The notes under the pieces: generated by a model
What the model was told of the DNA's origin: nothing
Database searches by the model: none
The model's input: the letters and a program-made list of their open reading frames with translations, nothing else
Shown: positions 44,219 through 56,304 of the stretch, piece by piece
Layout: every line of letters begins with the position of its first letter
How positions within the stretch are numbered: position 1 is the stretch's first letter
Translations under genes and position numbers: made by a program
Origin: Candidatus Parcubacteria bacterium
Lineage (GTDB): Bacteria; Patescibacteriota; Minisyncoccia; Phycocordibacterales; PALSA-1337
Assembly: GCA_028286835.1 (NCBI GenBank)
Contig: JAQBQT010000011.1
Coordinates: 71,246-129,191 of the forward strand
Length of the DNA stretch: 57,946 nt
Direction: 5' to 3'

Positions 44219-44220
44219 TG

Positions 44221-44294
44221 TCCGCCCTCATGGATTCGAACCATGGACCCCAGAGGTATAAGCTCTGTGCTCTAACCAACTGAGCTAAGGGCGG
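44221..44294 (-). tRNA. tRNA-Ile with UAU anticodon, CCA not encoded
   Basis: CCGCCCT-TA-GCTC-AGTTGGTTA-GAGC-A-CAGAG-CT TAT AC-CTCTG-GGGTC-CATGG-TTCGAAT-CCATG-AGGGCGG-A. All stems pair fully. Confidence 0.9.
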
Positions 44295-50197: not shown

Positions 50198-50288
50198 ATT
50201 GATGACAGAAAAAGCGGCTTTGAAACCGCTATTCTGTCCCTGCCTCTCAGGGTATTTATCCTCCCAGAGGCTCAAAAAGGGGTGCTAG

Positions 50289-50651
50289 TGGAGATGGCGG
50301 GAATCGAACCCGCGTGCAATCGAGGCTGTCCGGACGGTTCTACGACGGTAGTCATCTTTGTGGTTTAGTGAACGGACTCAAAAGAAGACAAAACGCACAT
50401 TCACGATCTCTATGGTTCGGGTAGTAAGGTGAGAAACCCTACTGCCCTACATCCAGGTTATGACATCGCACTAAGGTCAGGATCCCCCTAGATTGACGCG
50501 CACTACTTAAGCGAGTGCGAATGCAAAGTCCTTGGCTCCGAAATACGGAGATACGGTGTTTTTAGCATTTCGAGTTTCCAACGGATTAACGAGTCGCTGG
50601 TGCTCGCGCCGCGCGAACGGAAGCCGGCAATTGTCTATGCCGATCATCCCC
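50289..50651 (-). ncRNA. ssrA: tmRNA
   Basis: 5' GGGGATG pairs with 3' CATCTCC-A with a G3-U70 wobble. T-arm GCGGG-TTCGATT-CCCGC. Internal tag ORF 50566-50507. Adjacent to smpB. Confidence 0.96.
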
Positions 50652-53106: not shown

Positions 53107-53457
53107 ATGACACGCGTAAAGAAAGGAGTAAATGCACTTAAGAACCGCCGCAATGTGCTGCGCCAGGCCAAGGGCTTCCGCTTCCGCCGTTCGACGAATG
53201 AGGCAGCAGCCAATGAGGCTCTCGCCCATGCAGGCGCCTACGCCTTCGCTCACCGCCGCGACAAGAAGGGCGATTTCCGCCGCCTCTGGAACGTGAAGAT
53301 CAACGCCGGCCTCCGCGCCATCGACGCCAAGCTCACCTACAGCAAGTGGATGGGCGCAGCCAAGAAGAAAGGCCTTCTCCTCGACCGCAAGGCCCTCGCC
53401 ACGCTCGCCGAGTTCAAGCCTGAGACATTCAAGCGCGTTGTCGAATCGGTTAAATAA
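53107..53457 (+). CDS. rplT: 50S ribosomal protein L20
   Basis: MTRVKKG, AKGF, AHRRDKKGDFRRLWNVKINA, LDRKALA. Confidence 0.97.
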   Translation: MTRVKKGVNALKNRRNVLRQAKGFRFRRSTNEAAANEALAHAGAYAFAHRRDKKGDFRRLWNVKINAGLRAIDAKLTYSKWMGAAKKKGLLLDRKALATLAEFKPETFKRVVESVK

Positions 53458-54010
53458 TAGACTTCGCGAAGTCTGACAGATGAGTGCCGACGAGAACTGC
53501 GTCGGCATTTTTGTTGATGTCGGAGATAGTGCGGATATTGCTTGCCTGACAGAGCCAGCCCGGAAATGCTGCGCGAGCTTGGTCAAAGGTCTTGCCTTTA
53601 AGACCCCCGGTCGCGAGGTCACGGCTGTTCCATACAGCTTTCATGTCAGACGATATCTGCTTAAGCTCTTCGATGATGTTGGGCTCAATGAGGCACTTCC
53701 CTACATGGACTCGCGGGATGCGTCCGACCACGAGCACCCAGTCAGCTCCGGCTTGTATAGCTCGCACGATCAGATCGTCAGTCGCATGAATTCCTTTCGC
53801 TAGAATGGGCTTGCCCGTAAGCGCCTTCGCTTTCTTGATCAGTTCGAACGATCCATTCCAACGAGGGTCGGTATGTATGGAAATGATATCCCCTATTTCA
53901 TTGGCGATCTTGAATAATTCGTCCCAGCTTTTATCCGATACATATCCAAAGGGCGAATGTGTTTTAACTTCAGCGATCACAGAAATGTCCTTATCTCCTA
54001 CGCGGATCAT
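53450..54010 (-). CDS. Truncated indole-3-glycerol-phosphate-synthase-like (TrpC-like) TIM barrel
   Basis: VIAEVKTHSP, ISIHTD, ILAKG, AGADWVLV, LIE, WNSRDL, ADAVLVG. Confidence 0.7.
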   Translation of the reverse strand: MIRVGDKDISVIAEVKTHSPFGYVSDKSWDELFKIANEIGDIISIHTDPRWNGSFELIKKAKALTGKPILAKGIHATDDLIVRAIQAGADWVLVVGRIPRVHVGKCLIEPNIIEELKQISSDMKAVWNSRDLATGGLKGKTFDQARAAFPGWLCQASNIRTISDINKNADAVLVGTHLSDFAKSII

Positions 54011-55392
54011 TTAAGTTCGTATCTCTTCAGCCTTTCCGGCATCATAGCCTTCACGCGGAGCTCGTCATTGAGGCGCTGGGCGAGATGCATGGAGGCGCCA
54101 GGCTCGCCCATAGCCACGTATACCTGCTTGAGACGGTCTGTGGCAGTCGCGACGAATTCCACCAAGTGGTCGCCGTCCTTATGCGCTGAGTATCCGTATA
54201 TGGTTTCTATATGAGCCCTCACGGTGATGTCCTGACCGTGGATGTGGACCTTCTTCGTGCCGTCCGCCAGCGCGCGGCCGAGCGAGCCCGGAGACTGGTA
54301 GCCCACGAGGAGCAGCGTGCTCGTGGCATCGGGCAGGAATCGCTCTTCATGGCTTATGACGCGGCCGCCGACTGACATTCCCGAACCGGCCAGAATGATC
54401 TTGGCGCCCTGAAGGTGCTCGATCGAACGAGACTCCCCTTGCGACATGGTGTATTGGAGTTTAGGGAAATCAAAGATGTCATCGCCATTCCTGATCTGCG
54501 CCTGGGCTGCGGGATTGAAGAGCTCGATGCTGTCGCGATATACGTCGGTGGCCTTGATGCCCATGGGCGAGTCCACGAATATCGGAACTGACGGGATCCT
54601 GCCCTGCTCGACCATATTGTTGAGCTCATAGAGGAGCACTTGGGTGCGATCGATGGAGAATGCAGGGATGACGAGCGTGCCGCCGCGGGCCAAGGCAGCC
54701 TTGATGATATTCTCGAGCTCCGCCGAGCGCGTTTCCCTGTCTTCATGATTCCTATCGCCGTAGCAGCTTTCCATGACCATATAGTCTACGTCGCCCACGG
54801 TCTCGGTATCTCGGAGGAGTGGTGCCGGTGAATTTCCCAGATCGCCCGTGAATAGGATCTTGGTTCCCTGCGAATCCTTGAGAGTGACCTCGATCATCGT
54901 CGAGCCGAGAATGTGGCCGGCATCTTTGAGATATATTGAAACATCGGGTGCGATTTCAGTCTGCGTATGATATTCGACGGTCTTCCATTGCAGAAAGACA
55001 GGCGGCACGTCAGTCGCGAGATAGAGAGGGTCCCTTCCCTCACGTCGCGCCTCTTCGGCCAGAATGCCAGCGGCATCGGCCAGCACGAGCTCGGCAAGCT
55101 GCTTGGTCTGCGAAGTAGAATATATAGGGCCTTTGTATCCCTCCTTCACGAGCTTCGGGATGCGGCCCACGTGATCGAGATGGGCATGCGTGATGAGGAG
55201 TGCGTCTATCGAGGCAGGATCGTACGGGAACTTCTCGCGATTCTCTTCCTGGGCGACTCGCTCCCCTTGTACCATGCCGCAATCGATGAGGATCTTGGTG
55301 CCAGCAGGAGTTTCCAAAAGAAAGTTCGCGCCCGTGACCGTGCCTACGCCTGTCGCGAATAGGATGCTCGGCTTCTGTTGGGATTCATTCAT
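54007..55392 (-). CDS. MBL-fold metallo-hydrolase, beta-CASP family (RNA-processing nuclease)
   Basis: GVGTVTGAN, IDCG, THAHLDHVG, AGHILGS, FTGDLG, MESCYG, PAFSIDR, GSGM, YSAHKD. Start set to ATG 55392. Confidence 0.93.
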   Translation of the reverse strand: MNESQQKPSILFATGVGTVTGANFLLETPAGTKILIDCGMVQGERVAQEENREKFPYDPASIDALLITHAHLDHVGRIPKLVKEGYKGPIYSTSQTKQLAELVLADAAGILAEEARREGRDPLYLATDVPPVFLQWKTVEYHTQTEIAPDVSIYLKDAGHILGSTMIEVTLKDSQGTKILFTGDLGNSPAPLLRDTETVGDVDYMVMESCYGDRNHEDRETRSAELENIIKAALARGGTLVIPAFSIDRTQVLLYELNNMVEQGRIPSVPIFVDSPMGIKATDVYRDSIELFNPAAQAQIRNGDDIFDFPKLQYTMSQGESRSIEHLQGAKIILAGSGMSVGGRVISHEERFLPDATSTLLLVGYQSPGSLGRALADGTKKVHIHGQDITVRAHIETIYGYSAHKDGDHLVEFVATATDRLKQVYVAMGEPGASMHLAQRLNDELRVKAMMPERLKRYELK

Positions 55393-55446
55393 ACACTTAT
55401 TATACCCCGCCACACAGAAACACCCAGTGGGTGATTCTACTGAATC

Positions 55447-55480
55447 AAAAACACCACCTTCGCCTAGGGCGCGGTGATGT
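55447..55480 (-). terminator. Intrinsic terminator downstream of the putative 6S RNA
   Basis: ACATCACC-GCGCCCTAGGCGAA-GGTGGTGT followed by TTTT. Confidence 0.75.
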
Positions 55481-55487
55481 CTTCGGT

Positions 55488-55625
55488 AGGTTGCGAGTAT
55501 AATAACCTGTTTACACAGGTGGGTCTTCTCACGTCCAACGCCGAAGCGCGGATGAATATGAACAGCCGAACTGTTCGTCGAAGTCCCGTTAAAGTTGAAT
55601 TTGTAGTTTTTATACTACGCAACCT
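55488..55625 (-). ncRNA. ssrS: Putative compact 6S RNA
   Basis: Closing stem AGGTTGCGTAGTATAA / TTATACT-CGCAACCT. A/C-rich single strand, GGGACTTC/GAAGACCC internal stem, CCCACCTG-TGTAAA-CAGGTT hairpin, and UUCG and GUAA tetraloops. TACAAT -10 at 55637-55632 and a downstream terminator. Confidence 0.7.
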
Positions 55626-55680
55626 GTACCCATTGTAGACCTCTGGAGCGCGAGCGCAAGTGCCCCGATCCGTTCGGACA

Positions 55681-56304
55681 TTATTCGAGAATTCCGTCGA
55701 GATTGACGTCGTACAAAATCCCCTCCTGCACCAAACGGTAGTCTATGACCTCTTGAGGCTTGAACCAATGCGCTATCTCGTCTTCTGCCTCTTTGACCGA
55801 GCCCGAGGCATGCACGAGGTTGCGGATGGCGCGGCCATCCTGGTCAGTGAGGGCATAGGAATCGATGACAAAGTCTCCGCGGATGGTGCCCACATCAGAT
55901 GTAAGAGGCTCCGTGCCGCCCGTAAGCTTCCTCACGATCGATATCGCATGTGCGCCCTGCCAGACCATGACGATGGCCGGGCCCTTGGTCATGTAGTTGA
56001 CCAGGTTACGTAGGATCTTTTCGGTGACCTTGAGCGGATCAGTTTCCGGCGGAGTCATGCCCTTGTCGGTATAGCCTTTGATGGTCTTCACGCCGGTCTT
56101 CACGCGCCATTCGGGGTCGAGCGTATAGTGCTTCTCGATGAGCTCGGCTGTCGGCACCATCATCTTCATGGCGGCGAGTTTCATGCCCACGCGCTCGTAG
56201 CGGCCGATGATCTCTCCTATGAGGCTGCGCTGGATCCCGTCGGGCTTGATGATGACGAGCGTGCGTTCGAATTTCGGATGGTTATTGGATGTGGTGGATT
56301 TCAT
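55681..56304 (-). CDS. ndk: Nucleoside diphosphate kinase
   Basis: ERTLVIIKPDGIQR, GTIRGDF, RNLVHASGS. Confidence 0.96.
   Translation of the reverse strand: MKSTTSNNHPKFERTLVIIKPDGIQRSLIGEIIGRYERVGMKLAAMKMMVPTAELIEKHYTLDPEWRVKTGVKTIKGYTDKGMTPPETDPLKVTEKILRNLVNYMTKGPAIVMVWQGAHAISIVRKLTGGTEPLTSDVGTIRGDFVIDSYALTDQDGRAIRNLVHASGSVKEAEDEIAHWFKPQEVIDYRLVQEGILYDVNLDGILE

Follow-up and report, generated by a model that had tools for sequence, protein, structure and literature searches.

A conserved structured RNA encoded downstream of ndk in Parcubacteria, with a possible relationship to 6S RNA

Bacterial 6S RNA turns RNA polymerase off by mimicking an open promoter, and it is defined functionally by its binding to the polymerase and by the synthesis of product RNA. 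Canonical 6S RNA is built from an outer closing stem, an apical stem, and a large central bulge on the 5' side, in which the product RNA starts (PMC8414754; PMC8876501). The 6S RNA of Firmicutes has an additional hairpin opposite the bulge (PMC8414754; PMC8876501). Engineered variants of Bacillus subtilis 6S-1 with only 78-82 nt (6S78 and 6S82cp), composed of the bubble and two short arms, perform the full 6S cycle in vitro; they bind the sigma-A holoenzyme, template the product RNA, and are released, with an affinity that is about 10-fold lower (PMC8876501). The Rfam 6S model has no match in Actinobacteria, where the 6S-like Ms1 RNA was identified from structure and synteny and not from sequence (PMC9130861).

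In the literature that was searched, we found nothing that ties 6S or a similar RNA to CPR, Patescibacteria, Parcubacteria, or Saccharibacteria. CPR/Patescibacteria represent a large share of bacterial diversity and have tiny genomes. In this work, we analysed a DNA stretch of 57,946 nucleotides from a Candidatus Parcubacteria bacterium (hereafter called the window), in which an unannotated, stand-alone structured RNA, likely a compact 6S RNA, had been predicted from the sequence alone. We found that this RNA is, at minimum, a new and strongly supported structured RNA family of Parcubacteria. It is most likely a single-copy, stand-alone housekeeping RNA that is conserved across Parcubacteria/Paceibacterota. 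The explanation that we prefer, and to which we assign an even chance of being correct, is that the RNA is a divergent, minimal 6S-like RNA that would mimic an open promoter and occupy the sigma-70-type holoenzyme.

The RNA gene lies between ndk and a gene for a CPSF-like metallo-beta-lactamase ribonuclease (beta-CASP), on the same strand as ndk. The features of this region are given below in the direction of transcription.

55681-56304, minus strand: ndk, the adjoining upstream gene
55654-55659, minus strand: -35-like hexamer TTGCGC, read from the sequence, 16 nt upstream of the -10 box
55632-55637, minus strand: -10 box TACAAT, read from the sequence; the predicted start, A55625, is the 7th base after the box
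55488-55625, minus strand: structured RNA core, 138 nt, delimited by the score of the covariance model R1 (described below), the fold, and covariation
55610-55625, minus strand: closing stem P1, 5' strand (AGGUUGCG-U-AGUAUAA), from the covariation of helices 1-2
55588-55609, minus strand: open 5' strand, AAAACUACAAAUUCAACUUUAAC, 22 nt, the "5' central bulge", unpaired in the minimum free energy (MFE) fold and in both consensus folds
55604-55606, minus strand: conserved CUA of the window copy, inside the open 5' strand
55580-55587, minus strand: P2, 5' strand GGGACUUC (helix 3); GG invariant, third G and A almost invariant
55560-55576, minus strand: stem B hairpin GAACAG-UUCGG-CUGUUC (helix 4), an optional apical branch; compensatory changes in 5 of 6 pairs
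55532-55554, minus strand: stem C hairpin with a C(UUCG)G cap (helix 5); compensatory changes in all 8 pairs
55521-55528, minus strand: P2, 3' strand GAAGACCC (helix 3); last two Cs in 41/41 sequences, first C in 40/41
55520, minus strand: invariant unpaired A between P2 and P3, A in 41/41 sequences
55506-55519, minus strand: hairpin P3 (CCUG-UGUAAA-CAGG), which faces the open strand; the "3' central-bubble hairpin"
55503-55504, minus strand: joiner UA, from the MFE fold; 3-7 nt long in the family alignment
55488-55502, minus strand: P1, 3' strand (UUAUACU-CGCAACCU), from the MFE fold and covariation
55447-55479, minus strand: intrinsic terminator CAUCACC(GCGCCCUAGGCGAA)GGUGGUG followed by UUUUU, from sequence and fold
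54007-55392, minus strand: beta-CASP ribonuclease gene

All the sequence elements of the original prediction were recovered in this reanalysis. The TACAAT box (55637-55632) is followed, after 6 nt, by the 138-nt sequence (A55625-U55488), the ends of which form the expected 15-bp helix as 8+7 bp with one bulged U. The unpaired A/C-rich strand, the P2 stem, the CAGG hairpin, and the terminator also lie where they had been placed. Of the two apical hairpins described as UUCG-type, the one in stem C has a true C(UUCG)G loop, and the other has a UUCGG loop. In the window copy, GGGACUUC and GAAGACCC pair with one A-A mismatch.

Related loci were retrieved from species-representative genomes with the ndk protein. 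We obtained 80 loci (identity 58-80%), and the lineages named in them are all CPR/Patescibacteria (Parcubacteria, Paceibacterota, Taylorbacteria, Kaiserbacteria, and MAGs labelled 'Saccharibacteria'). An nhmmer search with the 138-mer sufficed to detect the RNA in more than 20 of the 80 loci, where it closely follows ndk and has the same orientation. A covariance model (R1) was built from 19 sequences (alignment A1), and a threshold of E<=1 was used for the locus counts. With this model, the RNA was present in 65 of the 80 Parcubacteria/Paceibacterota loci, as one RNA per species-level locus, on the ndk strand and mostly straight after ndk. In 3 of the 15 loci without a match, the contig extends no more than 133 nt beyond ndk, and the core motif is in the expected place in two or three loci that R1 missed (L053, L078, and perhaps L073). 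In the window, R1 found exactly one copy (55488-55625, minus strand; 128.8 bits, E 3.6e-24). A weak second match in L013 (8484-8558, plus strand; 19.4 bits, E 0.7), about 1.5 kb downstream of the main copy, is probably due to chance.

The gene order adk-map-ndk-RNA-beta-CASP is strongly conserved across the relatives. In 8 loci the RNA is 0.7-2.4 kb away from ndk, and in L041, L042, and L063 the beta-CASP gene is about 1.5-2.4 kb from the RNA; thus, the linkage of the RNA to either neighbour is not absolute. In L030, L032, L044, L066, and L074, the RNA is far from ndk yet only 434-640 nt upstream of the beta-CASP gene. The gene on the 3' side of the RNA varies, being a DUF2238-like gene in some loci and the beta-CASP gene in others.

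Some further observations concern the genes around the RNA. In many relatives, the RNA and the beta-CASP gene are separated by a gap of 400-500 nt. This gap was examined in L007 (6986-7351) and L018 (6898-7272), and in both it contains a separately promoted gene that encodes a membrane protein of about 122 aa; the protein has a weak likeness to DUF2238, below the Pfam cutoff, and the gene is missing from the window. The beta-CASP protein of the window is of the CPSF73/aCPSF1 type and is not an RNase J; its best NCBIfam matches, type VII Cas14 and archaeal aCPSF1, are both below the cutoff. A 186-aa ORF (53450-54010, minus strand), which overlaps the stop codon of the beta-CASP gene and is conserved in L018, has a partial indole-3-glycerol-phosphate synthase domain (residues 6-97, E 9e-9). 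Tryptophan synthesis is expected to be missing in such an organism, and this domain is therefore odd there. At 44220-44294 (minus strand), the window has a gene for tRNA-Ile with the anticodon UAU. In most bacteria AUA is read by a lysidine-modified tRNA with the anticodon CAU, and the tRNA-Ile(UAU) may reflect unusual AUA decoding.

The putative promoter of the RNA gene is kept at a nearly fixed distance. In 61 of 66 homologous loci, P1 is preceded by a TAnnnT hexamer, the end of which is 4-8 nt from the first base of the stem (exactly 6 nt in 46 loci); in 45 loci, a TTG-type hexamer precedes the -10 box by 16-18 nt. The promoter is retained also in loci with only 13-20 nt between the ndk match and the RNA, in which the -35 hexamer is inside ndk. 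Downstream of the RNA, a terminator-like hairpin (<= -7 kcal/mol) followed by at least 4 T occurs within 70 nt in 52 of the 66 loci. The genes after the RNA terminator look leaderless, with TAnAAT ending 6-8 nt before ATG (in the window, L001, L002, L011, L015-L018, L031, L061, and L064); in the window, the downstream gene has TATAAT at 55404-55399 and ATG at 55392-55390 (minus strand). This spacing supports a start of the RNA at the 7th base downstream of the -10 box. Between the RNA terminator and the promoter of the next gene, there is another small hairpin (CACCCACUGGGUG; 55421-55433, minus strand), and a U-rich run comes after it. As judged from these signals, the RNA gene is shown to be an independent, stand-alone gene with a predicted promoter and terminator that are both conserved, as had been claimed originally.

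The 138-mer has an MFE of -49.4 kcal/mol (z = -5.2 against 200 dinucleotide shuffles, none of which equalled it). Covariation was tested on a model-based alignment of 41 sequences (A3), and as controls the columns were shuffled (500 times) or the 3' partners were slid by 1-3 columns. In A3, 95.0% of 1532 cells pair, compared with 72.7% in the shuffled and about 40% in the slid controls. Covariation across the ndk-flanking regions of related genomes, which had been proposed as a check of the RNA, was clearly found; compensatory double changes occur in 33 of the 40 pairs. The covariation score is 0.607, versus 0.06-0.09 when the partners were slid by 1-3 columns, and none of the 500 shuffles reached any of the five measures. 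RNAalifold, applied to a MAFFT alignment and to A3, independently recovered the closing stem, P2, and stem C, and left the 5' strand unpaired. The structure is far above chance.

By energy, the plus strand folds as well as the minus strand; thus, folding energy alone cannot fix the strand. The paired columns of the 41 homologues contain 116 G-U cells versus 23 A-C cells, and R1 scores are about 20-37 bits on the reverse strand versus 110-140 bits on the RNA strand. Based on these results, on the orientation of the promoter and the terminator, and on the constant co-orientation with ndk, the RNA is on the minus strand, to which it had also been assigned originally. A T-box-like AGGUGGG on the opposite strand was ruled out by this strand evidence. 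A 52-aa ORF at 55464-55622 was also rejected, since the indels among the homologues are not multiples of three and the covariation is of the RNA type.

In P1, all 13 modelled pairs show compensatory changes, and 95-96% of the cells pair. The open 5' strand is 20-27 nt long in the 41 sequences, with 42% A, 38% U, 19% C, and 1.8% G, and its sequence is almost free except for a C(U/C)A motif, the sole conserved element there, which is found in 39 of the 41 sequences at 3-8 nt from P1 and 12-18 nt from P2. A pairing of the CUA motif with the 3' strand of P3 was considered and rejected because it is too short and does not covary consistently. The first three pairs of P2 are G-C in 41, 41, and 39 of the 41 sequences, respectively, and the inner four pairs covary. 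In the family, P3 has 4-5 bp with the form CCUR-loop-YAGG, in which CCU is nearly invariant; the fourth pair alternates between G-C (23) and A-U (17), and CCUAG/CUAGG variants add one more pair. The folded core is 138 nt in the window and 113-190 nt in the family, and the predicted primary transcript with the terminator (55447-55625, minus strand) is 179 nt, against about 160-200 nt for 6S RNA.

The Y-shaped apex of the original prediction is shared by most of the close relatives, in which the apex is a three-way junction of stems B and C, but it is not fixed in the family. Stem B is absent in L002, L046, and L029, and is lengthened to a long hairpin in L025 and L005. Six more distant members have an apical arm that is built differently, being mostly single and irregular (MFE folds only). 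The loop of stem C is CUUG in most relatives, with the consensus yUUGG. A K-turn or box C/D-like reading of GAYGA and (G/C)UGA at the apical junction was dropped because GAYGA sits in the optional stem B, which the three loci mentioned above do not have. A hammerhead-like core was likewise rejected; by eye, the junction strands are unlike CUGANGA/GAAA/UH.

At the gathering score, Rfam gave only tRNAs and tmRNA, and no 6S RNA, in the 58-kb window and 14 further loci. At E<=10, no family of Rfam 15 matched positions 55380-55700 of the window or two longer homologues (L034 6761-6944, 184 nt; L025 873-1074, 202 nt), and the proposed check against RF00013 thus had a negative outcome. For three family members, none of the models for RF00013, SRP RNA, RNase P RNA, tmRNA, and Y RNA was matched at the same threshold. 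When R1 was run with filters off against E. coli ssrS (sequence from NC_000913.3), a local match over the 3' bubble hairpin scored 2.5 bits, which is not significant; homology to 6S is therefore without statistical support. SRP RNA was rejected also by its loop: helix 8 of SRP RNA carries a GNRA loop, whereas the apical loop here is CUUG/UUCG. For a 'central bubble collapse helix', in which the 5' strand would pair with the 3' strand of P1, the duplex energies were no better than shuffled (mean z = -0.3), and a UACC/GGUA match for this helix was found in one subclade only.

Public sequencing runs (X2, X8, X11, and X23-X32, of which X28-X32 are peat metatranscriptomes) were compared as assembled contigs. 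In X23, the library type of which was guessed as RNA, a 179-nt contig with a depth of 23.7 was 100% identical to L001:2676-2849, and nothing else of the 8.6-kb L001 locus was found in this run, even at 80% likeness. This contig is suggestive of an abundant small RNA. It starts 17 nt upstream of the predicted start of the RNA, and this extension could reflect read-through from ndk or DNA. The metatranscriptome X27, from the study that yielded the DNA of the window, contained a tmRNA contig (363 nt, 100% identity, depth 57.7); thus, the organism was transcriptionally active in this sample. The tmRNA gene (50286-50651, minus strand; Rfam 94.7 bits; not listed by ARAGORN) is separate from the gene of the structured RNA. 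The contigs of X25-X27 and X2 did not include the RNA, and those of X8, X11, X24, and X28-X32 were uninformative. As RNAs this small are lost from standard libraries, its absence from X27 is a weak negative. In total, the transcript support for the RNA is thin, and the signs of its abundance conflict between X23 and X27.

In weighing the explanations, we counted in favour of a 6S-like RNA the independence of the gene, the real fold, the layout and its orientation, the G-poor strand, the equivalent hairpin, the single copy per locus, the possible abundance of the RNA, and the result that no other 6S RNA was detected in the window and the 14 loci. Against it we counted the missing Rfam match, the low score of R1 on ssrS, the short core, the closing stem of 13 bp, the branched apex, the missing signal of a collapse helix, and the weak transcript support. 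In our judgement, the 6S-like explanation is about as likely to be right as wrong. The invariant CCCACCU and the near-invariant GGGA are a sequence constraint beyond that of typical 6S RNA and could mark a site for another protein or a ligand. Because of this constraint, the silence of Rfam, the score of R1 on ssrS, the short core, the branched apex, and the lack of a collapse helix, we did not file the RNA under RF00013. A new housekeeping RNA class that is specific to Patescibacteria/CPR and unlike 6S in function, with the GGGA/CCC-A-CCU/AGG-UAU junction as its core and the 5' strand as a spacer, is the main alternative, though a less likely one. Such a class would be consistent with the clustering of the invariant nucleotides at the junction and the variation of the peripheral stems, as in aptamers and protein-binding cores, and with the lack of a match to any Rfam family, but a junction strand of this length and low G content, with a nearly free sequence, is atypical for an aptamer or ribozyme core, and 6S already matches the overall layout. 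Such an RNA could have a small molecule or a protein as its partner (perhaps the beta-CASP ribonuclease, for which it would be an RNA subunit or a regulator), or it could itself be catalytic. The order ndk-RNA-(DUF2238-like)-beta-CASP, kept also in the five loci where the RNA has remained close upstream of the beta-CASP gene, favours a link to this gene, whereas the three loci with a distant beta-CASP gene show that the linkage is not strict.

The RNA has a promoter and a terminator of its own and a long accessible strand rich in C, U, and A, the motif (U)CCUA/CUAYA of which could pair with GGA-containing ribosome-binding regions, and so it might be a trans-acting regulatory RNA that pairs with mRNAs through the open 5' strand as a seed, the remainder being a stabilising scaffold. 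We consider this improbable because the open strand is the least conserved part, with about 3 nt kept; moreover, 40 modelled pairs and the invariant junction bases exceed the needs of a scaffold for a seed, and several neighbours seem leaderless and would offer little 5' UTR as a target. The RNA might also act in cis, as a leader or riboswitch that controls the gene downstream, or as part of ndk (a terminator module or an element of its 3' UTR); we regard this as still less probable, with only a slight chance. The position of the RNA is always between ndk and the following gene of that strand, the distance from the ndk match is as short as 13-20 nt in some copies, and no separate terminator of ndk was seen in the window, so that read-through from ndk is possible and could explain the extension of the X23 contig. 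On the other hand, the RNA has its own promoter at a fixed distance, even with the -35 hexamer inside ndk, and is well separated from ndk in the 8 loci mentioned above. Its terminator looks constitutive and is separate from P1, with no antiterminator pairing evident by eye; the downstream gene has its own TATAAT promoter and varies in identity; and the junction strand is not conserved, all of which differs from what is expected of a riboswitch or leader.

If the RNA is a 6S-like RNA, the closing stem P1 would act as the downstream duplex of an open promoter, and P2 with the apical arm would act as the upstream duplex. The open 5' strand would be the template strand, and the invariant A and the P3 hairpin would be the non-template, '-10-like' strand. 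Such a topology fits: a template that runs from the upstream to the downstream duplex must be the 5' strand, and the long open strand is located there. The C(U/C)A motif, at 12-18 nt from the upstream helix, would be the putative start of the product RNA. For the window copy, the candidate product RNA would be 5'-AGUUUUUAUACUAC... if it starts opposite U55605, and would be antisense to 55605-55625, e.g., 5'-AGUUUUUAUACUACGCAACCU. Its synthesis would unzip the closing stem and free the polymerase.

If this RNA is the 6S RNA of CPR, polymerase control by promoter mimicry would be retained even in minimal cells, and the RNA would be a natural minimal form (a downstream arm of 13 bp and an apex with an optional branch) that could help to define what the polymerase needs for recognition. 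If it is not 6S, it is a new and deeply conserved structured RNA, with a set of 40 covarying pairs, in drastically reduced genomes, and would add to the few near-universal small RNAs of bacteria. In either case, the alignment and the model supply a family that is missing from Rfam 15 and mark a conserved ndk/beta-CASP neighbourhood.

The likeness to Firmicutes-type 6S RNA, which the original prediction had pointed to, agrees with the published description of the layout (PMC8414754; PMC8876501). With B. subtilis 6S-1 (RF00013), the Parcubacteria RNA shares a closing stem formed by the ends, a big open 5' bulge, a preformed 3' hairpin, an apical arm with internal loops, and a stand-alone gene (PMC8876501; PMC8414754), and its closing stem, open 5' strand, opposite hairpin, and apical domain are supported by covariation, although the apex is often a three-way junction. 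It differs from 6S-1 in that the core is about 50 nt shorter, the arm is usually branched, the RF00013 model is not matched, and the collapse helix gives no signal. The closing stem is 13 bp long and nearly continuous in the Parcubacteria RNA, whereas that of Firmicutes-type 6S RNA is long and interrupted. A 6S RNA is typically rod-shaped, and an apex with a three-way junction is unusual.

E. coli 6S RNA has 183 nt and long irregular arms. Its 5' bubble strand, AUAUUUCAUACCACAA, is free of G and rich in A, U, and C, as is the nearly G-free open strand of the Parcubacteria RNA. After the apical helix, E. coli 6S RNA has A131-CCUUG-AAC-CAAGG, and the Parcubacteria RNA has A-CCUG-N6-CAGG in the equivalent place; RNAfold predicted the same local hairpin in the 3' strand of E. 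coli 6S RNA and in the candidate A-CCUG-N6-CAGG. In E. coli, the 3' hairpin is reported to form fully only after the synthesis of the product RNA. One subclade (L018-L020 and L071) shares AUACCACA in the 5' strand with E. coli 6S RNA, which is only suggestive, as chance alone would produce such a shared 8-mer in about one of ten trials (rough estimate).

Since the 78-82-nt variants of 6S-1 work, the small size of the Parcubacteria RNA is not disqualifying (PMC8876501). 6S78 and 6S82cp are laboratory truncations, whereas the Parcubacteria RNA occurs naturally, is encoded by a conserved gene, and has an elaborated apical domain. Ms1 RNA has a length of about 300 nt. It binds the core polymerase and not the holoenzyme. 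The Parcubacteria RNA may be a very divergent 6S homologue.
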